64,000 nucleotides of DNA from Dehalococcoidia bacterium (GTDB lineage Bacteria > Chloroflexota > Dehalococcoidia > UBA2979): positions 704,001 through 768,000 of the forward strand of contig OZ219872.1 of the NCBI GenBank assembly GCA_964291495.2, read 5' to 3'. The notes beneath the pieces are model-generated. The model made no database searches. It was not told where the DNA came from and worked only from the letters and a program-made list of their open reading frames with translations. Position numbers and translations under genes: made by a program. Every line of letters starts with the position of its first letter. Positions within the stretch are counted from its first letter, which is position 1. Shown here piece after piece: positions 15,416 through 59,329 of this stretch.

Positions 15416-15755
15416 GCCCTCGATCCGGCCCCCTCGCCTGGGGGTGAGGGTTATCCGCCCCCCTCTCCTGGGGGAGAGGGTTGGGGTGAGGGGGCTCGCC
15501 GGACCTTCGCCGCCCGCGGAACGTTCGTGCGCCCTCGATCCGACCCCCTCTCCTGGGGGAGAGGGTTGGGGTGAGGGGGCTCGCCGGACCGTTCGCCGCC
15601 CGCGGAAGGCTCGTGCGCCCTCGATCCGGCCCCCTCTCCCGGGGGAGAGGGTTGGGGTGATTGGGGTGAGGGGGCTCGCCGGACCGTTCGCCGCCTGCGG
15701 AAGGCTCGTGCGCCCTCGACAGTCCGACGTGGGGGTGTGGGGGCTCTGCCCCACG
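15416..15755. repeat. Tandem array of BoxC-like units (about 86-95 bp) ending in a GGGGGTGTGGGG..CCCCAC hairpin element
   Basis: Repeated CCCCTCTCC(T/C)GGGGGAGAGGGTTGGGGTGAGGGGGCTCGCCGGACC; GTGCGCCCTCGA recurs at 15527, 15613 and 15708. Confidence 0.9.
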
Positions 15756-28251: not shown

Positions 28252-30513
28252 ATGAGCGTCTCAGAGCGGGATTCGGCGGCGCCTGTCCGCCCTGCCGGGC
28301 GCCGGGGCAAGCCCCGCCCGGTCCGGCTCACCGGCGCCTGGTGGGCTCCGGCCGTGGGCCTCAGCGGCCTCGGCCTGATTTCCGCCATCGAGCTGGAGCG
28401 CACCAACGCCGGCCGCGAGGTCTTCTTCAACGTCCAGCAGCCCTGGATCGTCTACATCCTGCTCGCGGCCCTCACCGGCCTGCTGGTCTACGGCTTCGCG
28501 CGCCACGCCACGCTCTGGACCGTCGGCAAGCCCACGCCCGGACTGCTGCGCGAGATCCCGATGCGCGCACGCAACGCCGTGCGGCTGGGACTCGGCCAGG
28601 AGAAGGTGCGGCGCGACCGCTACGCCGGGATCATGCACCTCTGCATCTTCTCCTCGATCATCGTGCTCACCGCCGTGACGGCGCAGGTCGCGCTCGATGA
28701 CGAGACGCCGCTCAGCTTCCTGCGCGGCGACTACTACCTGTTCTTCTCGTTCTACGGCGACCTGTTCGGCCTGATCGGCATGATCGGCGTCGGGATGGCG
28801 CTCTACCGGCGCTACTTCGACGACTTCCACCGCATCCGCTGGGACGAGCGCCTCGAGGACCACGTGATCATCTGGGGCCTCGGCCTGATCCTCATCACCG
28901 GATTCGGCGTGGAGGCGGCGCGGATCAGCGTCACCGAGCTGAACGGCTTCATCCTGGAGGACGGCACGCAGCTCGCGGCGCACCCGGACTGGGCGCGCTG
29001 GTCCTTCGTCTCCTACGTCATCGCCGAGGCGCTCGGCATCCTCGATCTCACGCAGGCCCAGGTGCTCGCGGGCCACACCTGGATGTGGTGGATCCACGTG
29101 ATCCTCGCCTTCGCCTGGCTCGGCCTGCTCGTCTTCACGCGCCTCGACCACATGATCTTCGCTCCCGTGAACGCCTTCCTGCTGCGCACCGACGCCCCCG
29201 GCCGCCTCACGAAGATCGAGGACATCGAGGAGCAGGAGGTCTTCGGCGTCGGCCAGATCCAGGACTTCACCTGGAAGCAGCTCTTCGAGCTCGACGCCTG
29301 CGTGCGCTGCGGGCGCTGCACCGAGGTCTGCCCCGCCGACCTCTCCGGCCAGCCGCTCTCGCCGATGCACCTGATCCAGGACCTCAAGGCACACCTCGCC
29401 TCGGTCGGGCCGGAGGTGCAGCGGCGCGGCCACCTCGGCGGCGACGTGCGCGAGGTCGCGCAGCAGGAGATGGTCGGCGAGGTGATCAGGGACGAGACGC
29501 TCTGGGCCTGCCGCACCTGCGGCGCCTGCGTGCAGGAATGCCCGGTGATGATCGAGCACGTGCCGACCATCGTGGACATGCGCCGCTACCTGGTGATGGA
29601 CGAGGCGCGGGTACCCGCCACGGCACAGACCGCCCTCGAGAACATGGAGATGCGCGGCCACCCCTGGCGCGGCACCAACCTCACTCGCGAGTCGTGGATG
29701 GAGGGCCTGGGCGAGGTCCCGGTCTTCGACGGCTCGCAGGACTACCTCTACTGGGTCGGCTGCTCGGGCGCGCTCGTCGAGCGCAACCTGCCGGTCACGC
29801 AGGCCGTCTTCCGGCTGCTGCGCGAGTCCGGGGCCAGCTTCGGCGTGCTGGGGCAGGAGGAGACCTGCAACGGCGACCCGGCGCGGCGTCTCGGCAACGA
29901 GTACCTCTACCAGATCCTCGCCGAGCAGCTGATCGAGACGTTCAAGGCGAAGAACGTGCAGCGCGTGATCACCAACTGCCCGCACTGCTTCAACACCTTC
30001 AAGAACGAGTACCCGCAGTTCGACGGCCGCTTCGAGGTGCTCCACCACACCGAGTTCCTCGAGGGCGCGCTCGCCGACGGCTCGCTCACGCCGAAGCACT
30101 CGCTCGACTCCAGCGTCACGTACCACGACTCCTGCTACCTGGGGCGGATGAACGGCGTCTACGACCCGCCGCGCCAGATCATCGAGCTGCTGCCGGGCGT
30201 CGATCTCACGGAGATGCGGCGCAGCCGCAGCAAGGGCCTGTGCTGCGGCGCGGGTGGCGGCAACATGTGGCAGGAAGAGGTCGGCGAACGCCGCGTCAAC
30301 CACGTGCGCACCGAGGAAGCCGTGGGCACGGGCGCCTCGGAAGTGGTCTCCAACTGCCCGTTCTGCATCCAGATGTTCGATGACGGCGTGCCCGCCATCC
30401 AGCCGGAGGAAGAGGGGCGGATCCGCCCCTTCGATATCGCCGAACTGGTCGAGCGCTCCGTGCTCGGCGAGAACGGGGCGAGCAGCAACGGCACGCCCGC
30501 CGCGACCTCGTAG
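28252..30513 (+). CDS. Membrane-bound heterodisulfide-reductase-related Fe-S oxidoreductase (FadF / ETF:menaquinone oxidoreductase type)
   Basis: Multi-TM N-terminus with His residues, CVRCGRCTEVCP and CRTCGACVQECP, two CCG domains (HDSCYLGR, CCGAGGG, NCPFC); adjacent to etfBA. Confidence 0.92.
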   Translation: MSVSERDSAAPVRPAGRRGKPRPVRLTGAWWAPAVGLSGLGLISAIELERTNAGREVFFNVQQPWIVYILLAALTGLLVYGFARHATLWTVGKPTPGLLREIPMRARNAVRLGLGQEKVRRDRYAGIMHLCIFSSIIVLTAVTAQVALDDETPLSFLRGDYYLFFSFYGDLFGLIGMIGVGMALYRRYFDDFHRIRWDERLEDHVIIWGLGLILITGFGVEAARISVTELNGFILEDGTQLAAHPDWARWSFVSYVIAEALGILDLTQAQVLAGHTWMWWIHVILAFAWLGLLVFTRLDHMIFAPVNAFLLRTDAPGRLTKIEDIEEQEVFGVGQIQDFTWKQLFELDACVRCGRCTEVCPADLSGQPLSPMHLIQDLKAHLASVGPEVQRRGHLGGDVREVAQQEMVGEVIRDETLWACRTCGACVQECPVMIEHVPTIVDMRRYLVMDEARVPATAQTALENMEMRGHPWRGTNLTRESWMEGLGEVPVFDGSQDYLYWVGCSGALVERNLPVTQAVFRLLRESGASFGVLGQEETCNGDPARRLGNEYLYQILAEQLIETFKAKNVQRVITNCPHCFNTFKNEYPQFDGRFEVLHHTEFLEGALADGSLTPKHSLDSSVTYHDSCYLGRMNGVYDPPRQIIELLPGVDLTEMRRSRSKGLCCGAGGGNMWQEEVGERRVNHVRTEEAVGTGASEVVSNCPFCIQMFDDGVPAIQPEEEGRIRPFDIAELVERSVLGENGASSNGTPAATS

Positions 30514-30587
30514 TCGGGGCGTAGTAGTCTGATGATCGGCGCGGGCTCGGCCGACCGCTGGCCGGGCTCGCTGTTGAGGGGGTAACC

Positions 30588-31391
30588 ATGCATTTCGTCG
30601 TCTGCGCCAAGCAGATTCCGGACCCGGAGACGCCGCCCTCGGCGTTCCGCATCGACGAGGCGAACAACGAGGTGATCCCGGCGCCGGGCATCTCGCCGGT
30701 GCTCAGCCAGTTCGACGGCATGGCCGCCGAGGCGGCCCTGCGCATCGTCGAGGCGGCCGGCGACGGCAAGATCACCGTCATCTCGCTCGGCCAGGAGAGC
30801 GCCCAGGCCGCCATCAAGCAGGTGCTCGCGATGGGCGCCGACGAGGGCATCCTGCTCGAGGACGACGCCCTGCAGGGCGGGGACTCCTACACGACCGCAC
30901 GCACCCTCGCGGCGGCGATCGAGAAGCTCGGCGACGTGGACGCCGTGTTCTGCGGCCGCCAGGCCGCCGACTGGGACATGGGCCAGGTCGGCCTCGGACT
31001 GGCCGAACTGCTCGGCTGGCCCTCGGCGATCATCGCCAAGGACGTGCAGATCGAGAACGGCACGATGCACGTCCAGCGCGTGCTCGCTGACGGCTTCGAG
31101 ACGGTCGCGCTGCCGCTGCCGGCGGTGGTCACGATCTCCAACGAGATCGGCGACCCGCGCTACCCGAAGCTGCAGCAGATCATGCGCGCGGCGCGGAAGA
31201 CCGTGAACCGCTGGAGCGCCGAGGACCTGGGGCTCGACCCCTCGACCGTGGGCGACGCCGGCGCGCGGCTCAAGCTGGAGCGGCTGTTCATCCCCGAGCT
31301 CGGCGGCGACGTCGAGATCATGGAGGGCGAGAGCGCGGAAGAGCAGGCACAGAACCTCGCCACGACGCTCCGCGAAGCGAAGGTCCTGTAG
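30588..31391 (+). CDS. etfB: Electron transfer flavoprotein beta subunit
   Basis: VVCAKQIPD, LAMGADEG, CGRQAADWDMGQVG, PRYP. Confidence 0.95.
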   Translation: MHFVVCAKQIPDPETPPSAFRIDEANNEVIPAPGISPVLSQFDGMAAEAALRIVEAAGDGKITVISLGQESAQAAIKQVLAMGADEGILLEDDALQGGDSYTTARTLAAAIEKLGDVDAVFCGRQAADWDMGQVGLGLAELLGWPSAIIAKDVQIENGTMHVQRVLADGFETVALPLPAVVTISNEIGDPRYPKLQQIMRAARKTVNRWSAEDLGLDPSTVGDAGARLKLERLFIPELGGDVEIMEGESAEEQAQNLATTLREAKVL

Positions 31392-31475
31392 GCCGCCGCG
31401 GGCGGTCCCTGAACGCTGCATAGCCGGTCCCGTGGCCCTCGAGGGCCGGACGGGCCGGGCGGGAGGCAAGCAACG

Positions 31476-32453
31476 ATGGCCAGAAACATCCTCGTGATCG
31501 GCGAGCTCGACGGCGGCGCGCTGTCCAGCACCACCGCCGAGCTGGTGGGCGGCGCCAGCCGCCTCGCGGACGGCGGGCAGGTCTCCGTGACCCTCACCGG
31601 CGCCGGCGCGAGCGGGCAGGCGAACGCGGCCTTCGCCGCGGGCGCCGACCGCGCCTTCGTCAACGACGACGCGACCTACGACGACTTCCGCTCCGACCAG
31701 TGGGTCGGCGCGGCGGAAGAGGCGATCGACCAGGCCGCCCCCGACGTGATCCTGATCGCCCAGTCGATCGTCGGTCGCGACCTCGGGCCGCGCCTCGCGT
31801 TCCGCCGCGACACCGCCGTGGCGATGGACTGCGTGAGCATCGAGGACAGCGGCGGGGCCTTCAAGGCGACGCGGCCCTGCTACGGCGGCAACGCCCAGGC
31901 GACCTACGCCTTCGCGACCTCGCCGGCGATCGCGACGGTGCGCGCCAAGTCGCAGGAGCCGCTCGACCCGCCCCGCGAGGGCGCGAGCGGCGAGGTGGTC
32001 GAGCTCTCCGGCGCCGGCGAGAGCCGCGCCGAGATCGTCGGCCGCGAGGCGGCAGTCGCCGAGGGCCTGCAGCTGCAGGACGCCCCGGTCGTCGTCTCCG
32101 GCGGGCGCGGGCTCGGCGCTCCCGAGGGCTTCGGGCTGGTCGAGGAGCTGGCCGAGGCGATCGGCACGGACAAGGCAGCTGTCGGGTCCTCGCGGGCCGC
32201 GTGCGACCTCGGCTGGTACCCGCCGAGCCAGCAGGTGGGCCTGACGGGCAAGGTGGTGACGCCGGACCTCTACATCGCGATCGCCATCTCCGGGGCCAGC
32301 CAGCACATGGCCGGCTGCAGCGGATCGAAGACGATCATCGCCATCAACAAGGACCCGGAGGCCAACATCTTCAAGGCCGCCCGCTACGGCATCGTGGGCG
32401 ACTACAAGGAGGTGCTGCCGCCACTGATCGAGGCGGTGAAGAACCTGGACTGA
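31476..32453 (+). CDS. etfA: Electron transfer flavoprotein alpha subunit
   Basis: [40 protein letters not shown]. Confidence 0.96.
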
Positions 32454-32482
32454 CGGGCGCGTACGGCCGCCGCGGGCGTTTC

Positions 32483-32511
32483 TTGCGCCCCCTCTGGCCG
32501 GTCCATACAAT
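32483..32511 (+). promoter_or_regulatory. Sigma70-type promoter for coaE / AAA+ / phosphoesterase / VWA
   Basis: TTGCGC (32483-32488), 17 nt spacer, TACAAT (32506-32511). Confidence 0.6.
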
Positions 32512-32571
32512 CGCCCGGCAACCGGATTCCAGCGCCACCGCCCACGCGCGATACGCGCTCTTGGAGGATCC

Positions 32572-33258
32572 ATGCGCGTTCTCGGACTGACCGGAGGGAT
32601 CGCCTCCGGCAAATCAACTGCGGCTGCCCAGCTCAAGGAGCTGGGAGTGATCGTGCTGGACGCCGACCGCTACGGGCACCGCGTCTACGAGCCGGACACG
32701 CCGGGCTTCCACGCCGTGGTCAACGAGTTCGGCCACGACATCGTCGGCGCGGACGGCGAGATCGACCGCCGCATCCTCGGCGGCAAGGTTTTCGGCGATC
32801 CGGAGAAGATGGACCGCCTCACGGACATCGTCTGGCCGGAGATCCGGCGCATCGCCGCCGAGGAGATCGCCGAGCTGCGCGACCGCGAGCCGGAGACGAT
32901 CATCTGCCTCGAGGCCGCCGTGATGATCGAGGCCGGCTGGCAGGACCTCTGCGACGAGGTCTGGGTCATCGCCACCGAGCCGGAGACGGCGATCAAGCGG
33001 CTCAGGGATCGCAACGGCCTCAACGCGGAGCAGGCCCAGGCGCGCCTCGACTCGCAGCTCACCAACCGGGAGCGGCGCAGGCACGCCAAGATCTACATCG
33101 ACAACTCCGGAACGCAGAAGCAGTTCCGCGACCAGATCGACCACGAGTGGATGCGCCTCCACCGCCGCATCAAGCAGGCGGTGGGACGCGCCCGCGCCCA
33201 GGCCCGCCGCGAGGCCGAGGCACGCGCCGCCGCCGACGCCGCGGCCAGGGGCGGATAA
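32572..33258 (+). CDS. coaE: Dephospho-CoA kinase family protein
   Basis: [42 protein letters not shown]. Confidence 0.9.
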
Positions 33259-33262
33259 CCCG

Positions 33263-34135
33263 GTGACCACAACCGAGGCCCGCCCCGACCACGACTACAA
33301 GCAGATCGAGGTCCAGGAGTTCCGGCTCACCGAGGAGCCCTTCTACCTGCCCGTCGCCGACGAGGTCGACCTCTTTGAGATCGCCTACGAGGAACAGATC
33401 CCGGTCCTGCTCAAGGGCCCGACCGGCTGCGGCAAGACCCGCTTCGTCGAGTACATGTCCTGGCGGCTGCACCAGCACCTCGGCGACGAGACGCAGGGCG
33501 TGCCGCTGATTACCGTCGCCTGCCACGAGGACCTCAGCGCCTCCGATCTCGTCGGCCGCTACCTGCTGGAGGGCGACGAGACGGTCTGGATCGACGGGCC
33601 GATCACGCGCGCCGTGAAGGCAGGCGCGATCTGCTACCTCGACGAGATCGTCGAGGCGCGCAAGGACACGACCGTCCTCATCCACCCGCTCACCGACTAC
33701 CGGCGGCTGTTGCCCCTCGACAAGCGCGGCGAGTTGCTCGAGGCGGCCGAGGGCTTCCTGCTGGTGCTCTCCTACAACCCCGGCTACCAGTCCGCGCTCA
33801 AGGACCTCAAGCACTCCACGCGGCAGCGCTTCGTCGCGATCGAGTTCAACTACCCACCGCGCGACCAGGAGGCGGAGATCATCCGCCGCGAGTCGAACTG
33901 CAGCGCCGAGGACGCGATGGAGCTCGCCAAGCTCGGCGAAAAGGTCCGCAACCTCAAGGAACACGGCCTCGCCGAAGGCGTCTCGACCCGCCTGCTCGTC
34001 TACGCCGGCCGGCTGATCAGCCGCGGCATCGCGCCCCGCCGCGCCTGCCAGACGGCGGTCGTCTGGGGGCTCACCGACGAGTTCGAGGTCCAGCGCTCCA
34101 TCGAAGAGGTCGTGACCTCGATCTTCCCGGAATAG
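33263..34135 (+). CDS. CbbQ/NirQ/NorQ family MoxR AAA+ ATPase
   Basis: [66 protein letters not shown]. Confidence 0.95.
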
Positions 34136-34146
34136 GGAACCCGCCC

Positions 34147-34749
34147 GTGCGCCTCGGGATCGTCTCGGACATCCACTGCAACGCAGAGGCGCTGGACATC
34201 GCCATCGAGCGCATGGGCAACGTCGACGAGCTGCTCTGCGCGGGTGACGCGATCTTCCAGTTCCGCTTCTCCAACGACGTGATCAGCCGCCTCCGCGAGA
34301 TCGGCGCGCGCATGGTCCTCGGCAACCACGAGGACGTCGTGCTCGGCCCGCTCGGCGACCGCGTGCGCGCGCACCACACCACCGACCCGGAGCTGCTGAA
34401 GTGGCTCTCCGAGCAGCCCCGCCGCATCGACACCGAGATCGGCGGCAAGAAGTTCACGATGTTCCATGCCTGCCCGGACGAGCCGCCCTACGAGTACGTC
34501 TACTCGGACAGCCCGCGCATCAAGGAGTTCGGCGAAACCGGCGCGGACTACGTCGTCTACGGCCACACCCACTACGAGCTGCTGCACCGCGTGAACAGCA
34601 CGCTGGTGATCAACCCCGGCTCCACGGGGCAGCCGCGCAACCCCTCCAACGGCTTCCGCGTCTCCTACGCGATCCTCGACACGCAGAGCGGCGAGGTTAC
34701 CTTCGACGTCTTCGACGACCCGCTGCGGCCGGGAATCAGGTCCACATGA
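34147..34749 (+). CDS. YfcE-like metallophosphoesterase
   Basis: SDIH, AGD, GNHE, FH, GHTH, NPGS. Confidence 0.92.
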   Translation: MRLGIVSDIHCNAEALDIAIERMGNVDELLCAGDAIFQFRFSNDVISRLREIGARMVLGNHEDVVLGPLGDRVRAHHTTDPELLKWLSEQPRRIDTEIGGKKFTMFHACPDEPPYEYVYSDSPRIKEFGETGADYVVYGHTHYELLHRVNSTLVINPGSTGQPRNPSNGFRVSYAILDTQSGEVTFDVFDDPLRPGIRST

Positions 34750-37700
34750 GCGCCGCCGCGGACGTCACCGCCCGCTACGACGCCGAGCTGCGCGGCTACG
34801 GCCCCACCCTGGCCGACGACCTCGCGAACGGCGCGCGCGCCCTCGAGGGCCGGCTGAGCGAGGAGCAGCTCGGCGAGTGGGCCAACGCCGGCGTCGAGCT
34901 CTCGCGCCACTCGCTGCGCTCCTGGGAGGCGGCCGCCGAGTACTTCCGCGCCAGCCCCCGGCTGCTGCCCGCCTTCTCGTTCGAGGAGCTGCTGGACTGG
35001 GCCGCCGTCGCGCGCGAGCTGTCCGAACAGTCCTCGATGATCGCCGCCGCCTTCCTGCGCGCGACGCCGGAGGTGCTGCAACCGCTGCAGGGCGCCGACG
35101 ACAAGGATCTCGGCATCATGGGCGAGTGGATCGGCCGCCCCGGCGAGCAGATCCGCCCCTGGTCCGCCCTCGGGCGGCGGCTCGCCCGAGGCAACTGGAA
35201 GTCCGTCGCGCTCGCCGCCTCCTTCTTCGAGCAGAGCCCGGCGCTGCTGCACGCGCTGCCACTCGACGCCGTGCGCGACCTGGTCGAGATCGTCGACCGG
35301 CTCTCGGAGCGCTCGTACCAGCTCGCCGCCTCCTGCCTGGAGCGCTCGGGCGAGCTGTTCGGGGGGCTGGCGCCGCCGGACCGGCGGCCCTTCCTGGAGT
35401 TCGCCGGCGCCGTGGCGAAGGCCTCGTGGGCGGACACGCGGCTCTACTTCGAGCGCGGGCCCGGACTGCTGGCCCCGATCGCGCAGGACGAGCGCGGCGC
35501 CTTCCTGCGCCTCGCCGCCGACGTCGCGGGCGAGACCGGCCGCCAGGGCTACCCGCTCTTCGTCGAGGCCGCCGAGGCGCTCGCCGAGGTCCAGCCCACC
35601 TACCACGGCACGCTGCTCGAGCTGTCCTCGCGGCTCGCGACCGGCAGCCCCGCCGCCGCGATGGCGTTCCTGCGCTCCTCGCCGCACGTGCTCACCCGGC
35701 TCACCGCCGACCAGCTGGAGCGCTGGCTGCAAACCGGCTGGGAGCTGCTCTTCGAGCAGGGCAACGTCGAGGGCGCCGAGGCCTACTTCCGCCTCGAGTC
35801 GTCGCGAGCCGAGGAGATGCTCGGCAACCTCTCCGCCCGCGTCGAGCTGCGCGACGTCAGCAACACGCTGCGGCTCTACTCGAAGGCGCTTACCGGCGAG
35901 CAGATCGCCATCCGCTCCACCGAGGAGCTGGTGGACGCCGGCATCGGCTGGGTCCAGGAGTCGGTCGCGACCACCGAGGGCAACGCGATCTACCTGCCGC
36001 CCTACGTCGGCACCTTCCCGGAGCAGCCGGAGAACTTCCAGAGCTACAAGGTCTTCACCACGCACCAGACCGGCCGCATCGAGTTCGGCTCGTTCCGCTT
36101 CGTGTTCGGCGCGTCCGGCGCCTACCTCGCATCGAGCATGGAGGAGCGCGAGGCTGCGCACGTCAACGGCGACGCGCCGGCCGGCGGGAACGGCGCGACG
36201 GAAGCCGCGCCGACCACGCCGATGGAGCGCTACTTCGACCTGTTCGCGGACCGCACGCTGATCTCCGGCCTGTTCACGATCGTCGAGGACGCGCGCGTCG
36301 ACGCCTACATCGCCCGCGAGTACGGCGGCATCCGCCCCGCCCTGCAGCGCATGCAGGCCCACGAGGCGGAGAGCCGGCGCAGCCCCGCCGAGATGGGCCT
36401 GCGCGCCGCCTACCTCGAGAACCTGCTGCGCGCCTCGCTCGGCCAGCCGCAGACGATGCGCTACCCGGCCGACCTGATGCCGCTGCTGCGCGAGGGCCTC
36501 GACCAACTCGAAGCGGTCGCCGAGCGCGACGCCACCGTGCAGGACTCGGCCGAGGCGGCCGCGGCGATCTACGCGATCGCCGAGCGCATCCCCAACATCC
36601 AGGGCGCCTACGAGGCCGTCGACTGGGAGGCCCTCGGCGACGAGATGATCGAGGTCAACCCGGATGTCTCCGGCGGCCCCGGCGCGGAGATGCCCTCCGG
36701 TGACGAGATCGACTTCGAGACGCCGCCGCAGCCCGAGTTCCGCGGCGACTTCAAGCCGGAGCTCGTGCAACTGATGATGCGCCTCCAGGAACAGCGCGAC
36801 GGCGCCGACCCGGCCGGCGCGCCGCTCACACAGGAGCAGCTCCAGGCGCTGCTCGAGAAGTCCGTCGAGATCACGATCTCCGACATCGCCGAGGGCGACC
36901 TCGCCTCCTCGATGGGCATGTTCCTCACCAACCTCGAGCGCGAGGCGCTGGACGCCAAGCAGGGCCCACCCGGCCAGGTGCCGGACGGCGCCGACGCCGG
37001 CGACTCCTCCGGCGAGGGCGACGTGATGGAGGAGCTGCCGATCGAGATCTCGTGGACCTACTACGACGAGTGGGACTTCCGCGCCGGCGACTACCGCCCG
37101 CGCTGGTGCCGCGTCGGCGAGCGCCGCGGCGAGGAGGGCGAGCTCGAGTACTACGAGGACACCCTGCGCCGCCACCACGGCCTCGTCTCCGAGACGCGCC
37201 GCCAGTTCGAGCTGCTGCGCCCGGAGCACTTCCGCCGCATCAAGCGCCTCGAGGACGGCGAGGACGTCGACCTCGACGAGGCGATCTCCTTCATCATCGA
37301 CAAGCGCGCCGGCGTCGGGCCCCTCGGGCGCGTCTACTGGCGGCGCAACAAGGTGGAGCGTGACGTCGCGGTCGCCTTCCTGCTCGACATGTCGGCCTCG
37401 ACCGACGAGGAGATCGACAAGCCGCAGACCAGCTACCAGCCGTCCGACGACGACTTCGACGACGACCCGCGCAAGTACTTCCAGTGGCTCGCCGAGCGCC
37501 GCGCGCGCTTCACCGCCGAGCCGCCGAAGCGAATTATCGACCTCGAGCGCGAGTCGCTGGTGCTGATCGTCGAGGCGCTCGAGGCGATCGGCGACGCGTA
37601 CGGCATCTACGGCTTCTCCGGCTACGGCCGCGACAACGTCGAGTTCCACGTGATCAAGGACCTGCACGACACCTTCGGCGACCGCACGCGGCGCCGCATC

Positions 37701-38057
37701 GACAAGATCCAGCCGATCCGGTCGACGCGCATGGGCCCGGCGATCCGCCACACGATCAGCAAGCTCGAGGCCTACGACGCGAAGGTGAAGCTCTTGATCC
37801 TCGTCTCCGACGGCCGCCCGCAGGACCACGGCTACGGGCGCGACCGCACGGAGAAGGAGTACGCGGTGCACGACACGCACCAGGCGTTGGTCGAGGCGAA
37901 GCAGCTGGGCATCACGCCCTTCCTGATCACCGTCGATAAGGAGGGCCACGACTACCTGAAGGAGATGTGCGACGACGTCGGCTACGAGGTCGTCGCCGAC
38001 ATCGAATCGCTCCCCCGCCGCCTCACCTCCCTCTACCGCGTCCTCGCCACGGACTAA
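34746..38057 (+). CDS. CbbO/NorD-type VWA adaptor protein (1103 aa)
   Basis: ATG 34746 (ATGA overlap); VEDARVD, YDEWDFRAGDYRP.WC, MIDAS DMSAS / TRMGPAIRH / SDGRPQD. Confidence 0.92.
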   Translation: MSAAADVTARYDAELRGYGPTLADDLANGARALEGRLSEEQLGEWANAGVELSRHSLRSWEAAAEYFRASPRLLPAFSFEELLDWAAVARELSEQSSMIAAAFLRATPEVLQPLQGADDKDLGIMGEWIGRPGEQIRPWSALGRRLARGNWKSVALAASFFEQSPALLHALPLDAVRDLVEIVDRLSERSYQLAASCLERSGELFGGLAPPDRRPFLEFAGAVAKASWADTRLYFERGPGLLAPIAQDERGAFLRLAADVAGETGRQGYPLFVEAAEALAEVQPTYHGTLLELSSRLATGSPAAAMAFLRSSPHVLTRLTADQLERWLQTGWELLFEQGNVEGAEAYFRLESSRAEEMLGNLSARVELRDVSNTLRLYSKALTGEQIAIRSTEELVDAGIGWVQESVATTEGNAIYLPPYVGTFPEQPENFQSYKVFTTHQTGRIEFGSFRFVFGASGAYLASSMEEREAAHVNGDAPAGGNGATEAAPTTPMERYFDLFADRTLISGLFTIVEDARVDAYIAREYGGIRPALQRMQAHEAESRRSPAEMGLRAAYLENLLRASLGQPQTMRYPADLMPLLREGLDQLEAVAERDATVQDSAEAAAAIYAIAERIPNIQGAYEAVDWEALGDEMIEVNPDVSGGPGAEMPSGDEIDFETPPQPEFRGDFKPELVQLMMRLQEQRDGADPAGAPLTQEQLQALLEKSVEITISDIAEGDLASSMGMFLTNLEREALDAKQGPPGQVPDGADAGDSSGEGDVMEELPIEISWTYYDEWDFRAGDYRPRWCRVGERRGEEGELEYYEDTLRRHHGLVSETRRQFELLRPEHFRRIKRLEDGEDVDLDEAISFIIDKRAGVGPLGRVYWRRNKVERDVAVAFLLDMSASTDEEIDKPQTSYQPSDDDFDDDPRKYFQWLAERRARFTAEPPKRIIDLERESLVLIVEALEAIGDAYGIYGFSGYGRDNVEFHVIKDLHDTFGDRTRRRIDKIQPIRSTRMGPAIRHTISKLEAYDAKVKLLILVSDGRPQDHGYGRDRTEKEYAVHDTHQALVEAKQLGITPFLITVDKEGHDYLKEMCDDVGYEVVADIESLPRRLTSLYRVLATD

Positions 38058-38072
38058 CCCCGCGCCGCCTTC

Positions 38073-38217
38073 CTCCGGCCCCCTCTCCCGGGGGAGAAGG
38101 CGGGGGTGAGCGCAATCCGGTCCCCTCTCCTGGGGGAGAGGGCGGAGGGTGAGGGGGCTCGCCGGACACACGACTGGCTGCTGAGGGACGCGCCCTGCCG
38201 CAGTCCGGAACCACCAC
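38073..38217. repeat. BoxC-like repeats, including a dispersed copy of the 106-bp unit of the 42.5-kb array
   Basis: CCCCTCTCCTGGGGGAGAGGGCGGAGGGTGAGGGGGCTCGCCGGACACACGACTGGCT...CCGGAACCA. Confidence 0.85.
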
Positions 38218-38262
38218 CCGGGAGCTGTCACCTAAGCTCGAAGTAGCCGGGAGGGGACCGCG

Positions 38263-40026
38263 ATGCTCGTAGGCCGCGCGCACCGTTCGCTGCCGCCCCT
38301 GCTCGCCGCCGCCATCGCGCTCGCGCTCACCGCCGCGCTGGCTGCCTGCACCAGCGAACCGGAGGAGCCCCCGCCGCCCGCAGCAGCCACGCCCGCCGCG
38401 GCACCAGCATCCGCCCCCGAGGCGACGCCATCCCCGACCCTCACCTCGACGCCCGCATCCACGCCGACGGCGACACCATCGCCCTCGCCAACTCCTACCG
38501 CCTCGCCAACTCCTACCGCCTCGCCAACTCCTACCGCCTCGCCAACTCCTACCGCCTCGCTGACTCCGACGCCCTCGCCCACGCCAGCGGCAACGCCCGA
38601 ACCCACGCCGACGGCGACGCCGTCGCCCACGCCAACTCCGACGCCGATCGCCCCACCCGTCACGTTCCTGTTCGCGGAAGGCTTCTCATCCTCGGACCGA
38701 TCCGACGTCCGGCGCGAGATGGCGAACATCATGACTGTGTTCGCCGAGCGCTTCGGCGCACAGGCAACCGCGTTTACCGTCTCTGTCGGGGACCGCGATC
38801 CTGGTAGAGCCAGACCCGGCTTCATGGCTACCACGGCTAGTTTCTGGGACGCTGCCCACGAGTACTTCCACGTGCTCCAGTACGAGCTTGCCGACGGCCG
38901 CTCCCGGGGACCGCACTGGCTGGTCGAGGGTTCGGCGACTTACGCGGAAGAAACGTACGACGGAGACCTGGACTTCCGCCGCGCCATAGCGCCTGCCGGA
39001 GCGTCGTTTGTCGCCAGTATCAGAGAGACGGAGTCGGCAGACCAGGTTCGCCTCAACTACCACCTCGGCTTCCTTGCCGCCGACTGGCTTGTCGGTCACG
39101 CAGGTGAGCTCTCGCTGCTCGAGTTCTACCGCCTCCTGCCTGCCCATGACGGCTGGGAAGACGCGTTTGCGGCAGCCTTCGGCCTAACAATCGACGAGTT
39201 CTACAAACGGTTCGAGGAGCACCGTACGAGGATCGCTCCGCCGTTGCCCCACGTGACGGACGACGCCGTGACGCCAGTTGCCGTCTTCGTCGGGAACGTC
39301 CCAGATCACGTCCGTTCCGAAATCCAGGCCGAAATGAGCAGCGTGAGTGCATTCCTTGCCGAACGCTTTGGCGCCGAGGCGACCGAGTACTCCGTCTACG
39401 TCGGAGCGGACTGGGACAGCGTTGCCGCTCACAGTCGCCGGCTCTCGCTGAACCTCTGGTGGGACGACCGCATCCGGCGCCACTCACTGCCCCTGCCGTG
39501 GGCTTCCGGGTGCTCGAGAGGAGCGACGGGCTGGGTGATTCACGTGACCGGCTGCGGCTACTCGCCGGGTCCCAGCGTCTACATCAACTCCCACCTGCGC
39601 GTGCTGCTCGAGGGCAAGGACCAGAGGGACCTACCCCCGCTGTGGATGGAAGCGGGTGGAGGGGCGTACGTCGCGCTTGCCTACACCGCCACCACGGGGC
39701 CGGGACTCAGTGCTGAACTCTCCCGGCATAGGAGTGTGGTCGAGCAGTCAACCGTTCCACTCGCACAACTGGCGGCGACAGATGGCTGGGAGGAAGCAGG
39801 GGACGACGAACGGCTGGCGCTCAGCGTCGTGGCAGTGGACTGGCTGCTTCGACGAGCAGGAGACGCGGCCCTGTTCAACTACCTTCGGCTCCTTCCGGAA
39901 GGAACCCTTGGCCTACCGTCGGAGGTTGCGACGGCGGCGTCGGCATTCGAGCAGGCGTTCGGACTTACGATCGACGAATTCTATGACCAGTTCGACGTGT
40001 ACCGGTCCACTCTGACGGCCGAGTAG
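38263..40026 (+). CDS. Lipoprotein with Pro/Thr stalk, HEXXH gluzincin-like domain and a second degenerate copy of the domain
   Basis: Lipobox LAAC, PT linker, AHEYFHVLQ...WLVEGSATY; [13 protein letters not shown] recurs as [13 protein letters not shown]. Confidence 0.85.
38483..38560 (+). repeat. Coding 18-bp VNTR, CCTCGCCAACTCCTACCG x4 plus a partial copy
   Basis: Four perfect copies encoding SPTPTA. Confidence 0.92.
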
Positions 40027-40086
40027 CGGCCCCTCGCCTGCCTCGAACGGCTGTCGATCAAGTAGCGGGCGCGGGAGCGTCCGGCG

Positions 40087-42384
40087 CTAGCCGCCCTTCG
40101 ACTCGATCGCGTCGAGGACCGCTCCGGGGGTGATCGGCAGCCGGTTGATGCGCACGCCGATGGCGTGCGAGACCGCGTTCGCGACGGCGGCGAGCGGCGG
40201 GATGATCGAGGCCTCGCCGACGCCGCGCAGGCCGAACGGGTGGTGGGGGTTGGGCACCTCGATCATGACCGAATCGATCATCGGGATGTCCATCGCCGTC
40301 GGCATCCGGTAGTCGAGGAAGCTGCTGTTCAGCATCGCGCCCTCGGCGTCGTAGTAGTACTCCTCGTTCAACGCCCAGCCGATGCCCTGCACGGTGCCGC
40401 CCTGGATCTGCCCCTCGACGTAGCTGGGATGCACCGCCGTGCCCACGTCCATGAACGCGGTGTAGCGCAGGATCTGCACCTTGCCGGTCTCCGGATCGAC
40501 CTCGACATCCACGATGTTGCCCGCGATGACCGGGCCGACGCCCGTGGTCGGGACCGAGACCGAGCAGGTCACCGGGCCGCCGCTGCCCGGCAACTCGGCC
40601 GCCAGCTCCGCGAACGTGAACGTCAGCGCCGGATTCCCGGCGCAGCTGAACGCGCCGTCCTCGAAGGTCACGTCCTGCTCCTCGACCTCCCAGATCGCCG
40701 CCGCCCGAGCCCTCATCTGCCGGATCACTCCCTGCGCCGCCTCGATCGCCGCGAGGCCCGTGTCGAAGGCGGTGTGGCTGCCGCTGGTGGCGCCGGTGAG
40801 CGCGATGGTGTCGGTGTCGACCACCGTCGGCGTCACGTCCTCGGCGCTCAGGCCCAGCACCTCGGCGGCCTGCATTGCCACGGCGGTGCGCGAACCGCCG
40901 ATGTCCACCGAGCCGGTGACGAGGTTGATGGTGCCGTCGCTGTTGACGTGGATCGTCGCCGCCGAGCTCTGGCCTCCCTGCCAGCGGAAGCCGACGGCCA
41001 CGCCTCGCCCGCGGTTGGGGCCGCCGAGCCGCGCGTTGTAGTGGTCGTGGGCCTGCATCGCCTCTTCCAGCTCCTCGATGCCCAGCAGCAGGTGCGCGAC
41101 GCCGTTGGGCATGCGGTCGCCCTGCCTGGCGACGTTCAGGAGCCGGAGCTCGAGGGGGTCGATGTCCAGCAGCTCCGCGAGCTCGTCGATGACGGGCTCG
41201 ACGGCGAACGCGCCCTGCGGCTGTCCCGGCGCGCGATAGGCCTGGGTCTTGTTCTTGTTGACGACCACGTCGTAGCCGTCGACGAGGAGATTCTCGATGT
41301 TGTACGGACCGGTGGCGCAGAGCGTGCCCCCGCCGACGGCCGAGCCGGGGAAGGCGCCCGCCTCGAAGGTCAGCGTGATCTGAGCGGCAGTGATCCGGCC
41401 GTCCCGGGTCGCGCCGATCTTCGTGCGCGCGTGGCTCGCCGAGGCGGGGCCGGTGCCCTCGAAGACGTCCTTGCGGGTCATCACGACCTGCACGGGCCGC
41501 CCGCTCTTGCGCGAGAGGATCGCGGCGACGGGCTCGACGTACGCGACGAGCTTGGCCCCGAACCCGCCGCCGATCTCGGTCGGCACGACCTTCACCGTCG
41601 ACTCGGGCACATCGCAGATCGCGGCGGTCGCCGCGCGGATCGGGAAGGCCCCCTGGGTGCAGGTATGTACCGTGAGGCGGCCGTCACGCGCCCAGGTGGC
41701 AGTGGCCGCGTGAGGCTCGATGTAGCCCTGGTGGACGGTCTCCGTGAAGAACTCACGCTCGACGACCACGTCGGCCTGCCGGAAGCCCTCCTCGACATCG
41801 CCGAGCTTGTGCTGGATGTGGGAGGCGACATTGCCGCGAACCCCGGTGTCGTCCCCGCGGGCGAAGCGCGCGAGCCGGAAGAAGGTCGTCAGGTCCTCGT
41901 GGATGATGGGTGCGTCGTCCGCCATGGCCTCGGCCAGCGAGAGGACCGCCGGAAGCACCTCGTAGTCCACCTCGATCAGCGCGAGGGCGTCCTCGGCCAC
42001 GTGGGGACTGCTTGCGGCGACCGCCGCGACCGCATGCCCCTTGTAGAGGGCCGTCCTGTGGGCCATGACGTGCTCGGCCATCAACCGCATGTTCCCGCGA
42101 ACGAGCGCCAGGTCGAGATCCTGATCGCCGATGATCGGAATGTCGGCCGAGGTCATCACGGCGAACACGCCGGGGAGCGCCTCCGCCTCACTGGTGTCGA
42201 TGGACCGGATGCGCGCGTGGGCGTGCGGGCTCCTGAGGATCCTCCCGTGGAGCATGCCGGGAAGCCGGATGTCGGCCCCGTACCGGGCCTCGCCGGTGAC
42301 CTTCTCCGAGCCGTCGTGCCGGATCGGCCTCGTCCCGACGACGGCGTAGCCGCCGCTCACCCGGGGTCGTTCGGTTGTCGTCAT
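40087..42384 (-). CDS. Xanthine dehydrogenase family molybdopterin-binding large subunit
   Basis: ATG 42384; RSPHAHARI, HQGYIEP, IGGGFGAK, AYRAPG, EGQIQGG, GVGE. Confidence 0.93.
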   Translation of the reverse strand: MTTTERPRVSGGYAVVGTRPIRHDGSEKVTGEARYGADIRLPGMLHGRILRSPHAHARIRSIDTSEAEALPGVFAVMTSADIPIIGDQDLDLALVRGNMRLMAEHVMAHRTALYKGHAVAAVAASSPHVAEDALALIEVDYEVLPAVLSLAEAMADDAPIIHEDLTTFFRLARFARGDDTGVRGNVASHIQHKLGDVEEGFRQADVVVEREFFTETVHQGYIEPHAATATWARDGRLTVHTCTQGAFPIRAATAAICDVPESTVKVVPTEIGGGFGAKLVAYVEPVAAILSRKSGRPVQVVMTRKDVFEGTGPASASHARTKIGATRDGRITAAQITLTFEAGAFPGSAVGGGTLCATGPYNIENLLVDGYDVVVNKNKTQAYRAPGQPQGAFAVEPVIDELAELLDIDPLELRLLNVARQGDRMPNGVAHLLLGIEELEEAMQAHDHYNARLGGPNRGRGVAVGFRWQGGQSSAATIHVNSDGTINLVTGSVDIGGSRTAVAMQAAEVLGLSAEDVTPTVVDTDTIALTGATSGSHTAFDTGLAAIEAAQGVIRQMRARAAAIWEVEEQDVTFEDGAFSCAGNPALTFTFAELAAELPGSGGPVTCSVSVPTTGVGPVIAGNIVDVEVDPETGKVQILRYTAFMDVGTAVHPSYVEGQIQGGTVQGIGWALNEEYYYDAEGAMLNSSFLDYRMPTAMDIPMIDSVMIEVPNPHHPFGLRGVGEASIIPPLAAVANAVSHAIGVRINRLPITPGAVLDAIESKGG

Positions 42385-42480
42385 TTCGCCGCTCCTCGCC
42401 GGTTCCGAAGGCCGCCGCCCCGATACTACGCGCTGCGCGAGCGGCTCGAGGAATAGCGCCCCGCATCGGCCCCCTCCCCT

Positions 42481-42927
42481 CCGGCCCCCTCTCCTGGGGG
42501 AGAGGGCGGGGGTGAGGGGGCTCGCCGGACCCACGGCTGGCTCTTGAGGTGCGCACCCCGCCGCTCGCCGGAACCATCGCCTCCCTCCGGCCCCCTCTCC
42601 TGGGGAGAGGGCGGGGGTGAGGGGGCTCGCCAGACCCACGACTGGCTCTTGAGGCACGCACCCTGCCGCTCGCCGGAACCATCGCCTCCCTCCGGCCCCC
42701 TCTCCTGGGGGAGAGGGCGGGGGTGAGGGGGCTCGCCAGACCCACGACTGGCTCTTGAGGCACGCACCCTGCCGCTCGCCGGAACCATCGCCCCCCCTCC
42801 GGCCCCCTCTCCTGGGGGAGAGCCGTGTCTTGTGGGGGATCCCCCCACACCCCCCCGCGGGTGAGGGGGCTCGCCGGACCTGCGACCGGCTCTTGAGGCA
42901 CGCACCCTGCCGCTCGCCGGAACCATC
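42481..42927. repeat. Four tandem units of about 106 bp with BoxC-like cores
   Basis: Units start at 42481, 42587, 42692 and 42799; the fourth carries an inserted TGTGGGGGATCCCCCCACA hairpin. Confidence 0.93.
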
Positions 42928-45248: not shown

Positions 45249-46475
45249 TCACGCCCCCAGCAGCCAGCGCCGCACGAGGTCGAGTGCGACCGTGGTGGCG
45301 CGGCGCTTGGCGGCGTCGCGGCCCTGGTAGTAGGAGTACGTCTGGTACTCGGTGCGCTCGCCGTCCGTCAGCGCGATGTGCATCGTGCCCGGCGGCTGGC
45401 CCTCGATCTCGTCGCCGCCCGCGATTCCCGTGAGGCCGAGGCCGAGGTCCGCGCCGAGCTGCTCTCGCGCCGCCGCCGCCATCGCCTCCGCCGTCTCGCG
45501 CGAGATCACGCCGTGCAGCAGCGGCACTTCGGCGGGCACGCCGTGCGCGATCTTCGCCTCGGTGGCGTACGTCACCAGGCTGCCGCGGAAGTAGTCCGAG
45601 GACCCCGCCACGTCCGTGATGGCGCTCGCGATCGCCCCGCCCGTCGCCGACTCCATCACCGCCAGCGTCAGGCCGCGATCGCGCAGCAGCCGGCCGACGC
45701 CCGCCGGCAGCGTGTCGTCGTCCTCGCCCCAGACGGAACCCCCGAGGATGCCGCGCACCTTCTCGGCGAGCGGGTGGATCAGCCGCCACGCGTCCTCGCG
45801 CGTCGGCGCCTTCGCGCTGAGCCGCACGTGGATGCCGTCGCGGCGCGCGTAGATGCCGATCGAGGGGTTCGTGGTGTCCAGCAGGTCGGCCAGCATCTGG
45901 TCGACCTGCGACTCGCCGAGGGTGGCGGTCTTGATCGTGTGCGAGACGAGGATCGCGCTCGCCCGCTCCTCGAGGCGCGGCGCGACCTGCTGCTCCCACA
46001 TGAAGGTCATCTCCTGCGGCGGGCCGGGCACCAGCACGATCACGTGGCCGCCGCGCTCCACCCACCAGCCGGGCGCGGTGCCGCGCGGGTTGGGCAGCGC
46101 CTGCGCCGAGGGGATCAGCCACGCCTGCTTCATGTTGCGCTCGACGAGCGCGGCCCCGCGGTGGCCGAAGCGCTGCTCCAGCAGCGCGCGCTGCTCCTCG
46201 TCGATGTAGACCTCCTCGCCGAGGACGGCGGAGACGGCCTCGCGCGTCACGTCGTCCTCGGTGGGACCGAGGCCGCCGCTGGCGATGGTCAGCTCGGAGC
46301 GTTCCCAGGCGCGGGCGAAGACCTCGCGCAGCCGCGCCGGGTTGTCGCCCACCTGCGAGACGTGCAGCAGGTCGATGCCGAACTCCGGCAGTTGCGAGGC
46401 GATGAAGGCGGCGTTGGTGTCGACGATCTCGCCGAGCAGGATCTCGGTCCCGATGGAGACGATCTCAGCGCGCAT
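45249..46475 (-). CDS. cinA: CinA competence/damage-inducible protein with PncC-like NMN deamidase domain
   Basis: IGTEILLGEIVDTN, GGLGPTEDDVT, GTAPG, PGPPQEM, ESATGG, TGIAG. Confidence 0.94.
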   Translation of the reverse strand: MRAEIVSIGTEILLGEIVDTNAAFIASQLPEFGIDLLHVSQVGDNPARLREVFARAWERSELTIASGGLGPTEDDVTREAVSAVLGEEVYIDEEQRALLEQRFGHRGAALVERNMKQAWLIPSAQALPNPRGTAPGWWVERGGHVIVLVPGPPQEMTFMWEQQVAPRLEERASAILVSHTIKTATLGESQVDQMLADLLDTTNPSIGIYARRDGIHVRLSAKAPTREDAWRLIHPLAEKVRGILGGSVWGEDDDTLPAGVGRLLRDRGLTLAVMESATGGAIASAITDVAGSSDYFRGSLVTYATEAKIAHGVPAEVPLLHGVISRETAEAMAAAAREQLGADLGLGLTGIAGGDEIEGQPPGTMHIALTDGERTEYQTYSYYQGRDAAKRRATTVALDLVRRWLLGA

Positions 46476-46554
46476 CAGGCCTCCTCGCCCGCGCCGCCCG
46501 TACGGGGCGCGTGGAGGATAGCAAGGGATGCTGCTGCGGGAGGCACGGCAGCGC

Positions 46555-47208
46555 CTACACGCGCAGCGGCGGCGCGCCCGCCGGGCGCCACGTCATGGCC
46601 TCGACGCGCTCGCCGGCGAGCGAGGCCTCGACGAGGCGGTCGCGCCCGATGACGACCGAGGCGGCCGTGCAGGGGTTGGGCGCGCCCGGCGTCTCGCCGA
46701 TCGGGACGATCGAGGCGCGCAGCAGGTCCGGCTCCAGTTCGAGCAGCGCGATCGCGCCGAGGCGCGTCGTGCGGTGGTGCGGGAAGCTCGGGCTGGCCGG
46801 GTCGAGCAGCAGCACGCCGTCGCGGTACTCGAGCCGCTCGTAGTGCGAGTCGCCGGCGATCAGCACGTCGAGCTCGGCGTCGCCGTAGACCTCGCGCGAG
46901 AGATCTCGAGGCGTCTCGATGCCGCGCGGGATCGCCTCCACGTCGTGGACCATGCCGATCCGCCAGCCGGCGTGCTCGACGAGCTGGACGGGAGCGCAGC
47001 GCGCGTCCTCGAAGTGGTCGTGCCCACCGAGCGAGCAGCGCACGGGCGCGAACTGCTCGCACCAGTCCAGCACCGAGGGCTCCGTCACGTCGCCGCCGTG
47101 GAGGATCAGGTCCGCCGAGGCGAGCTGGTCCTCGAGCGTGCCGCCCAGCTCGCCGGGGTGGCGCATGGTGCTCGGCATGTGGGTGTCGGAGAGGACGGCG
47201 ATACGCAT
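46555..47208 (-). CDS. YfcE-like metallophosphoesterase (divergent motifs)
   Basis: ATG 47208; SDTH, HGGD, GGHD (for GNHD), GDSH (for GHTH), DPAS (for NPGS). Confidence 0.85.
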
Positions 47209-47330
47209 CGCGCGATGGTACGCGCGATGCCGCTCAGCCGCGCGCAGTCGCCGTCGAGGCCGCGCACGGCGGACCGTCGTGCGCGACAATGGATCGCGGG
47301 GGCCAGGCGATCGCGAAAGGACGCACGGCG

Positions 47331-59304: not shown

Positions 59305-59329
59305 GGGCCTCGAGGGCGAGGAGCGGCGC

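Follow-up and report, generated by a model that had tools for sequence, protein, structure and literature searches.

A CbbQ/NorQ-type AAA+ ATPase and its long VWA adaptor encoded with coaE: a probable undescribed branch of MoxR remodellers in Dehalococcoidia

Introduction

Among the MoxR-type AAA+ ATPases that act with a VWA-domain partner, CbbQ and CbbO (CbbQO) release inhibitory sugar phosphates from Rubisco, and to our knowledge the clients of such pairs are a handful: Rubisco, nitric oxide (NO) reductase, CO dehydrogenase, methanol dehydrogenase and the chelatases. In Midasin (Rea1), a helical stretch, an acidic linker and a MIDAS (metal ion-dependent adhesion site) domain follow one another in that order. 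The main text of a study of NorQ and NorD (NorQD) reports that this pair inserts non-haem iron (FeB) into cytochrome c nitric-oxide reductase, that a finger is seen in the NorQ pore by cryo-electron microscopy, and that a pair of NorQ cysteines forms an inhibitory disulfide (PMC13036017). Here we describe a related pair encoded in a 64,000-nt stretch of the genome of a sponge-associated Dehalococcoidia bacterium (contig OZ219872.1, positions 704,001 to 768,000 of the forward strand; the whole stretch is referred to as the window), where four co-directional genes encode the dephospho-coenzyme A (CoA) kinase CoaE, a CbbQ/NorQ-type ATPase that we call Q, a metallophosphoesterase and a VWA adaptor. 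We consider it reasonably probable that Q and the adaptor represent an undescribed, Dehalococcoidia-wide branch of the CbbQ/NorQ–CbbO/NorD MoxR AAA+/VWA remodellers, transcribed together with the sole housekeeping coaE of the cell.

The pair is most readily compared with NorQ/NorD (PDB 9qh4–9qhg). Q aligns end to end with NorQ and keeps its Walker A and Walker B motifs and both cysteines, the last 330 residues of the adaptor align to NorD 355–643 including the hairpin region and the MIDAS, and in both the gene order is Q then adaptor. In contrast, this genome is without norCB, Q belongs to a separate clade and has a 9-residue insertion, and the adaptor is operonic with coaE and 1103 aa long, as against 633–654 aa in five annotated nor loci, and bears at its N-terminus an additional arm of some 360 aa. 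CbbQ/CbbO (PDB 5c3c, 6l1q) provides the best sequence match of Q (CbbQ 5c3c), and the adaptor N-domain aligns weakly to CbbO 189–264; however, there is no Rubisco in the genome or in five other carriers of Q, Rubisco-adjacent CbbQ proteins form a clade of their own, and a sampled CbbO has 743 aa. The aerobic cobaltochelatase motor CobS/CobT likewise combines an AAA+ ring with a VWA partner, and the adaptor gives CobT signals that are all below significance, but Q is of the CbbQ_C type and not CobS. The AAA_5 modules of Rea1/Midasin match Q (E 1.5e-38), its MIDAS domain ranks directly after NorD among the structural matches of the adaptor VWA domain, and helical stretch, acidic linker and MIDAS domain follow one another in the adaptor as they do in Midasin; Midasin, however, is a single giant polypeptide in which six AAA modules are fused.

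Results

Four tightly spaced genes that begin at coaE

The host genome (3.08 Mb, 70% G+C, 8 contigs) has a completeness of 93.7% and a contamination of 3.68%, and the closest public relatives of the window are metagenome-assembled genomes (MAGs) of Dehalococcoidia/Chloroflexota. DNA runs labelled as sponge metagenomes contain 26–32% of the sampled words of the window, and in one of them (X4) contigs are 90–99% alike to it. After a gap of 118 nt downstream of etfA the four genes follow on the plus strand: coaE (32572..33258; 228 aa), which starts with ATG and has GGAGGA 5 nt upstream; Q (33263..34135; 290 aa), which begins 4 nt further on with GTG and ends with TAG; the YfcE-family metallophosphoesterase (34147..34749; 200 aa), 11 nt beyond Q and also with a GTG start; and the adaptor (34746..38057; 1103 aa), the ATG of which overlaps the phosphoesterase TGA in the ATGA at 34746–34749. 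A preliminary description of this DNA had noted the same four reading frames and junctions, and these are confirmed. In one related locus (L054) coaE and Q overlap.

A candidate promoter proposed in that description lies in the etfA–coaE gap (32483..32511, plus strand) and consists of TTGCGC (32483–32488) and TACAAT (32506–32511) separated by 17 nt. Both hexamers are present, and in an alignment of the spacer from the window and six relatives TCTTGCG and TA..AT are kept at the fixed 17-nt spacing in seven of seven sequences; in loci L007 and L008 the elements are kept though the remaining spacer has diverged. This footprint supports a functional element preceding coaE, and with it a unit that would begin at coaE. 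A consensus scan of positions 30500–40200 listed no promoter, and the TTGCGC/TACAAT pair went unlisted because the first hexamer fits TTGACA at only three of six positions. Short contigs from an RNA-labelled sponge run (X22), 90–97% alike to the window, fall on etfA, Q and the adaptor gene; another run (X23) is RNA by conjecture only.

Immediately beyond the adaptor stop codon a G+C-rich palindromic repeat occurs twice (38080..38152, plus strand; the 18-mer CCCCTCTCCYGGGGGAGA lies at 38080 and 38122), which may mark the 3' boundary of the operon. A terminator scan of 30500–40200 found no T-rich terminator after the adaptor; its single terminator-like hit, a number that shuffled sequences exceed, is on the minus strand within Q. 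We do not take the repeat itself for a terminator, its fold being no better than those of shuffles (z -1.44). The repeat, of which the 18-mer is the core, is REP-like, and 10 of its 49 genomic copies fall in the window, the further window copies being at 15460, 15545, 15631, 42486, 42697, 42804, 48181 and 53135 (minus strand); public metagenome contigs stack on it with many small indels.

Q is an orphan outside the CbbQ and NorQ clades

Q scores 104.2 bits to AAA_5 (cut-off 22) and 96.6 bits to CbbQ_C (cut-off 20.6), and among solved structures it matches CbbQ best (5c3c, E 1e-98), followed by NorQ (9qhd, E 9e-96). The Walker A motif GPTGCGKT (residues 52–59, G52–T59) and the Walker B residues D127–E128 are both intact, as the preliminary description had read them, and Cys56 and Cys87 correspond to the two cysteines of the NorQ disulfide pair, so that redox control of Q is possible by analogy. 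Relative to the solved CbbQ and NorQ there is an insertion of nine residues around HQHLGDETQ at about residues 70–79 (window positions 33470–33499), after the Walker A helix.

Within this genome Q is the only match to CbbQ_C, and the adaptor is also single. The preliminary description had reported that Rubisco, NO reductase and NirS genes are lacking from the window, and this extends to the whole genome, in which, at 93.7% completeness, we found no match to the Rubisco large subunit (PF00016) or to cytochrome d1 (NirS, PF02239), and no norCB, the sole PF00115 match being a CtaD-type cytochrome c oxidase subunit I. Rubisco was also not found in any of five streamlined genomes that carry Q. The AAA+/VWA pair is a true orphan in this genome.

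We placed Q in a MoxR/CbbQ tree of 79 rows, using as references annotated plasmid loci (the Rubisco cbbLS-Q-O locus of Cereibacter, norCB-Q-D of Ruegeria, Phaeobacter, Azospirillum, Methylocella and Agrobacterium, and a norEF-linked pair of Thiothrix) and Rubisco-adjacent gammaproteobacterial loci. In this quick tree Q belongs to a Dehalococcoidia clade of 25 rows with a Shimodaira–Hasegawa-like approximate likelihood-ratio (SH-aLRT) support of 99, and both the NorQ clade (6 rows, support 100) and the clade of Rubisco-adjacent CbbQ proteins (12 rows, support 99) exclude it. The sister clades come from Thermoleophilia, Pyrinomonadaceae, Nitrospira and Desulfobacteraceae, and with midpoint rooting the clade of Q is nearer to CbbQ than to NorQ.

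The adaptor joins a NorD-like VWA region to a long helical arm

The adaptor falls just below the cut-off of the Pfam VWA family (PF00092, 22.3 bits against 23.8), but residues 772–1100 align to solved NorD (9qhd_G) with an E value of 6e-34. An AlphaFold2 (AF2) model built with 35 sequences has a mean predicted local distance difference test (pLDDT) score of 80.7 and suggests five parts, all encoded on the plus strand: a helical-repeat arm (residues 1–365; 34746..35840; block pLDDT mostly about 90), a compact alpha/beta domain that would be the counterpart of the NorD/CbbO N-terminal domain (366–630; 35841..36635), an acidic linker of low confidence with 32 Asp and Glu against 7 Lys and Arg (631–768; 36636..37049), a long beta-hairpin (769–794; 37050..37127) and a VWA domain (795–1103; 37128..38057). 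Pfam finds nothing significant in the arm, the N-domain or the linker.

A structural search with Foldseek gives the NorD VWA domain (9qh6_G) as the best match of the VWA domain (E 2.5e-12, template modelling score to target 0.73) and the MIDAS domain of Rea1/MDN1 thereafter. The MIDAS is complete, with D881, S883, S885 and D1022 invariant among the 35 sequences and T994 present in at least 90% of them, in agreement with the preliminary description. The hairpin YDEWDFRAGDYRPRWCRV, with predicted strands at 769–777 and 782–794, aligns to NorD 355–380, and Y773, E775, W776, D777, D782 and W787 are invariant. Because it is placed just before the VWA core, we regard this 26-residue hairpin as a candidate for the finger that enters a NorQ-type pore.

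The alpha/beta domain aligns weakly to the NorD N-domain (hhalign probability 38%, E 3e-4) and to CbbO 189–264 (66%, E 5e-5), and given this weak homology what appears to be new in the modelled adaptor is the arm of some 360 residues in front of a core resembling NorD, CbbO and CobT. Modelled alone, residues 366–630 reach a pLDDT of 90.3, and Foldseek gives no match to this model at E≤0.001. In a wide structural search the top rows are nearly all zincin-type metallopeptidases, among them BepA, ZMPSTE24, abylysin, selecase and YbeY, with Z scores of 4.5–6.1 that may reflect only a common arrangement. H440 and E446 are invariant in a helix that follows the small sheet, and E514 and R517 are invariant in a later helix; the adaptor carries H440-x5-E446 and not HExxH, and the aligned CbbO stretch reads H-A-A-A-H. 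Signals of CobT are below significance, both in the Atlas, where the nearest named clusters to the adaptor N-region are CobT-domain proteins (score 0.88), and in Pfam, where 5 of the 35 N-domain sequences touch CobT (best E 0.039). We take the weakly zincin-like character of the modelled N-domain as a lead. The main texts of two NorQD papers (PMC13036017, PMC9976466) call the N-domains of NorD and CbbO unconserved or unrelated, and the terms zincin, metalloprotease and peptidase are absent from those main texts. A profile of residues 366–630 has 1605 matching cluster representatives at a threshold of E≤0.001 (1050 at one of E≤1e-10), the majority with lengths of about 1000–1130 aa, and the long form of the adaptor therefore constitutes a large family.

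coaE is the constant neighbour and the gene between Q and the adaptor varies

CoaE scores 167 bits to PF01121 and 152.6 bits to the equivalog model TIGR00152 (cut-off 65.55), has the P-loop GGIASGKST, and ends in an Ala/Arg-rich tail. Eight candidates in the genome were scored for PF01121 and only the operon coaE matched, which together with the equivalog score points to the housekeeping enzyme of the cell and not to a dedicated paralogue. The preliminary description had viewed this gene as a "CoaE-like" accessory kinase; it is instead the sole coaE of the genome.

We followed the linkage in 80 loci fetched by Q (68–98% identity) and, more strictly, in a census of 87. Of the 80 loci, 73 have coaE upstream of Q and 77 have a VWA gene downstream of it. 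In the census coaE is found within 1 kb upstream of Q in 72 loci and at about 1.2 kb in seven more, and four loci end too early, so that 79 of the 83 with room have the link. The link persists in loci with a CoaE identity of only about 40% and with different genes on both sides, ETF (electron-transfer flavoprotein) and FadF genes being upstream in one set of loci and selA and mgsA in another, and three of four streamlined genomes of 1.2–1.4 Mb keep the order coaE, Q, Nudix gene, adaptor.

The position between Q and the adaptor, which we refer to as the slot, is variable. In the window it is occupied by the phosphoesterase, which scores 92 bits to Metallophos_2 (PF12850) and 66.2 bits to the YfcE family (TIGR00040, cut-off 56.25); its translation contains SDIH, AGD, GNHED and YGHTH, corresponding to DxH, GD, GNHE and GHTH, which we take to be the metal-binding motifs of the YfcE family. 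Across the census a Nudix gene is the commonest occupant (35 of 87 loci, nine of them also with a PhnB/VOC-like gene), a YfcE-type phosphoesterase is present in 16 and a cyclophilin in five (one also with a phosphoesterase), and in 32 nothing is detectable; nucleotide phosphohydrolases thus make up two of the three recurrent slot fillers. The best family of the slot Nudix proteins of relatives is a CoA pyrophosphatase (NF007980) in three of three proteins, at 94–99 bits, below the cut-off of 134. By its distribution the slot gene is optional and mobile, and the phosphoesterase is no core part of the system. The preliminary description had linked kinase and phosphoesterase in one module: the coaE link is kept far beyond close relatives, but the phosphoesterase is present in 16 of 87 loci only. 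Of the two observations that it had named beforehand as telling against such a module, a linkage that is not conserved and a coaE that is the only housekeeping copy, each holds by half. A second YfcE-type gene is located in the window at 46555–47289.

Distribution of Q and settings in other lineages

With a threshold of E≤1e-30, Q was found in nine genomes of a phylum-wide sample of 301, all nine from Dehalococcoidia, and within Dehalococcoidia in 163 of 251 sampled genomes (162 of 250 without the unpublished G514), 123 of 182 high-quality genomes and 101 of 163 genera. Carriers include streamlined genomes of 1.2–1.4 Mb. In relatives the operon lies among core genes that include selA, mgsA, mnmA, RNase HII and cinA, the last of these a frequent convergent neighbour of the adaptor gene (35 loci in a neighbourhood clustering); in the window, cinA (with MoCF_biosynth, KH and CinA domains) adjoins the second YfcE-type gene (45249–47289, minus strand). 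We found no paper linking CbbQ with Dehalococcoidia, nor one describing this system under CbbQ and SAR202.

Related pairs in other lineages have different surroundings. In Pyrinomonadaceae a long adaptor is flanked by mnmA in 25 of 30 loci and, on the other side, by hydantoinase B in 19, and genes for SerRS, SppA and MnmA surround the pair. The Thermoleophilia adaptor is split into an arm protein and a VWA protein, and in 22 of 25 loci a thiamine diphosphate (ThDP) enzyme adjoins the pair, with thiolase/DUF35 and AMP-ligase genes nearby. Since no neighbour is common to all lineages, the family seems to serve many clients, and in Dehalococcoidia the sole constant neighbour is coaE.

The Thermoleophilia loci include one on a 46.6-kb plasmid of the cultured Miltoncostaea oceani (NZ_CP064358.1, 34779–38920; L085/L089), which encodes a 362-aa arm protein and a 548-aa VWA protein; F420 biosynthesis, thiolase/DUF35, AMP-ligase, ThDP enzyme and acetoacetate-decarboxylase-family genes are also on this plasmid. 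On plasmid pBN4 of Paraburkholderia aromaticivorans (L171, 2908–8479) an aliphatic amidase gene (amiE), Q, a 581-aa VWA gene, an AmiC-like binding protein gene and an ANTAR regulator gene (amiR) are found together; this CbbQ-type ATPase groups with Rubisco-type CbbQ on a long branch. A Desulfobacteraceae MAG (L122, 8751–14443) has a URO-D/MtaA-like methyltransferase, Q, a 739-aa VWA gene, DUF2284 and DUF1638, a setting that resembles that of a corrinoid methyltransferase. Four TetR-Q-adaptor loci (L021, L026, L029 and L075) carry the labels delta-proteobacterium or Microthrixaceae, and their Q proteins, 76–77% identical, are nested in the Dehalococcoidia clade. The three of these that were scanned with Pfam (L021, L029 and L075) have a divergent molybdenum-bis(pyranopterin guanine dinucleotide) (Mo-bisPGD) oxidoreductase with a 4Fe-4S subunit, and an Eis-like GNAT/SCP2 acetyltransferase lies downstream in L021 and L029. 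The adaptor reading frames of these loci, which come from long-read assemblies, look broken. These loci reflect either gene transfer or mislabelled bins.

Other genes in the window

Downstream of the operon, an open reading frame of 587 aa (38263–40026, plus strand) has no Pfam match. It encodes a lipobox-containing (LAAC) signal peptide, an extended linker rich in Pro, Thr, Ala and Ser, and two internal repeats that both contain FGLTIDEFY, the first also carrying the HExxH-type sequence HEYFH; by these features the product resembles a secreted metalloprotease that is a lipoprotein and would belong to an undescribed family. It is followed on the minus strand (40087–42657) by the molybdenum subunit of a xanthine-dehydrogenase (XDH)-family enzyme, for which the best NCBIfam model is the alpha subunit of 4-hydroxybenzoyl-CoA reductase (437 bits, far under cut-off). 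Two tandem carboxyltransferase paralogues of 523 aa each (PF01039, 322 and 316 bits) lie at 57733–60901 (plus strand), in surroundings rich in acyl-CoA dehydrogenase, CoA-transferase, crotonase and luciferase-like monooxygenase genes.

Discussion

If the pair works as NorQD does, six Q subunits would form a ring, the beta-hairpin finger of the adaptor would enter its pore, and the C-terminus and N-domain of the adaptor would dock on the ring. ATP hydrolysis would then rotate the VWA domain and twist and stretch the acidic linker, and a client held at the MIDAS, the N-domain and the extra 360-residue helical arm could be levered open, letting a metal or a tightly bound ligand enter or leave. 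The gene for such a client would not be next to the operon. The position of the operon among core genes and its survival in genomes of 1.2–1.4 Mb suggest a broadly retained core enzyme as the probable client and not a niche catabolic one. The link to coaE could plausibly mean either that the client handles CoA nucleotides or that the genes share transcription only.

Several observations weigh against a Dehalococcoidia-wide remodeller branch that is transcribed with coaE. No client was identified for the Q/adaptor pair. Four loci in which Q is nested in the Dehalococcoidia clade carry TetR in place of coaE, no coaE match was found upstream of Q in one streamlined genome (G159), and common descent within a single class could alone account for a good part of the linkage to coaE. 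The tree comes from a quick search, has SH-aLRT values as its only support, was rooted at the midpoint and gave long-branch warnings. Evidence for transcription is weak, in that X22 is one run, none of its contigs spans two genes, and carry-over of DNA is possible. The genome also has its own homologue of the slot-type Nudix protein (46% identity) that is unlinked to the operon, from which we conclude that slot genes come and go.

Two other interpretations bear on what the pair does. The pair may be a chaperone that inserts a metal centre into an unlinked metalloenzyme, in the style of NorQD, CoxDE or CobST, with which coaE and the slot gene may merely share a promoter; mixed operons frequently contain housekeeping genes. 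We regard this as possible, if on balance doubtful. The closest solved relative inserts non-haem iron, according to the main text of its description (PMC13036017), the best structural matches of the adaptor N-domain are zincin-type with invariant His and Glu where zincins bind metal, and there is the weak CobT signal; but Z scores in this range are rated uninformative, the HExxH motif is not in the adaptor, no candidate metalloenzyme recurs beside the pair across lineages, and the retention of coaE in particular is left unexplained. Alternatively, the pair might act as an activase in CoA-nucleotide repair, expelling a dead-end CoA-derived nucleotide from a CoA-dependent enzyme, with the slot hydrolase destroying the nucleotide and CoaE helping to rebuild CoA. 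This is close to what the preliminary description envisaged, and a Nudix of CoA-pyrophosphatase type in the slot of other lineages fits its CoA-nucleotide theme, as do the retention of coaE as the one neighbour kept while flanks change, the prevalence of nucleotide phosphohydrolases as the two commonest slot genes, the precedent of CbbQO freeing Rubisco of sugar phosphates, and the frequency of acyl-CoA genes near relatives in other phyla, such as the AMP-ligase and thiolase/DUF35 genes of Thermoleophilia. We nonetheless consider it a rather unlikely account: as a sole and essential gene coaE needs no special function for its presence, the slot is empty in 32 loci, the slot Nudix proteins score under their family cut-off and have an unlinked homologue in the genome of the window, in Pyrinomonadaceae, Nitrospira and Thermoleophilia the relatives with long adaptors have no coaE beside them, and acyl-CoA genes are so common in these genomes that nearness is weak evidence.

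The remaining candidates concern particular clients. With etfB, etfA and a FadF-like gene directly upstream in the window, and ETF genes adjoining the operon in 28 of 80 loci in both halves of the clade, the adjacent ETF/FadF-type oxidoreductase complex (with CCG, Fe-S and b-haem features) was an obvious suggestion, and one that the preliminary description had made; but adjacency is lost in the large Nudix-type clade, in which selA and mgsA are upstream, and ETF (PF01012) was not found in two of five streamlined carriers of Q, each 95% complete, which makes this complex a very improbable client. The presence of ETF in three and of COX1 in four of the five streamlined carriers argues against ETF and a haem-copper oxidase as the general client. 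CoaE itself might be the partner or client of the remodeller, inasmuch as the conserved neighbour usually is the client in this family (Rubisco for CbbQO, norCB for NorQD) and here that neighbour is coaE, but CoaE is an ordinary enzyme with an equivalog score and the long-adaptor systems of other phyla are without coaE adjacency, and we think this improbable. The high similarity of Q to solved CbbQ and NorQ would also be expected of an ordinary Rubisco or NO-reductase activase whose client gene lies outside the window; with neither Rubisco large subunit nor cytochrome d1 in the genome and its sole haem-copper oxidase of the CtaD type, no Rubisco in the five other carriers, and Q outside both clades, we find this scarcely credible.

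Other candidates were rejected. A Midasin-like role in ribosome assembly, suggested by the AAA_5/MIDAS likeness and by tRNA and translation genes nearby in some lineages, has nothing beyond resemblance in its favour. The XDH-family molybdenum enzyme encoded 2 kb downstream recurs in only 3 of 80 loci (L003, L065 and L070), and the Mo-bisPGD enzyme is seen in the three Pfam-scanned TetR-type loci. The hydantoinase of Pyrinomonadaceae and the ThDP enzyme with thiolase of Thermoleophilia are lineage-specific neighbours.

We therefore return to the interpretation of Q and the adaptor as a Dehalococcoidia-wide branch of CbbQ/NorQ-type remodellers encoded with the housekeeping coaE. The plasmid-borne pair of Miltoncostaea oceani offers a small and tractable system in which to find a client, and the zincin/CobT-like signal of the adaptor N-domain, if confirmed, would bear on NorD and CbbO as well. 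The tie to coaE, which encodes the last step of CoA synthesis, together with the CoA-type hydrolases of the slot, provides a concrete and testable hypothesis; if the pair does relieve a CoA-dependent enzyme of a dead-end nucleotide, it would be the first activase for such an enzyme and would extend the Rubisco-activase principle to the control of cofactor damage. The branch occurs in about two thirds of the sampled species genomes of Dehalococcoidia, an abundant group in both ocean and sponges, and this prevalence, which includes streamlined genomes, suggests that its client is likely to be an important one.

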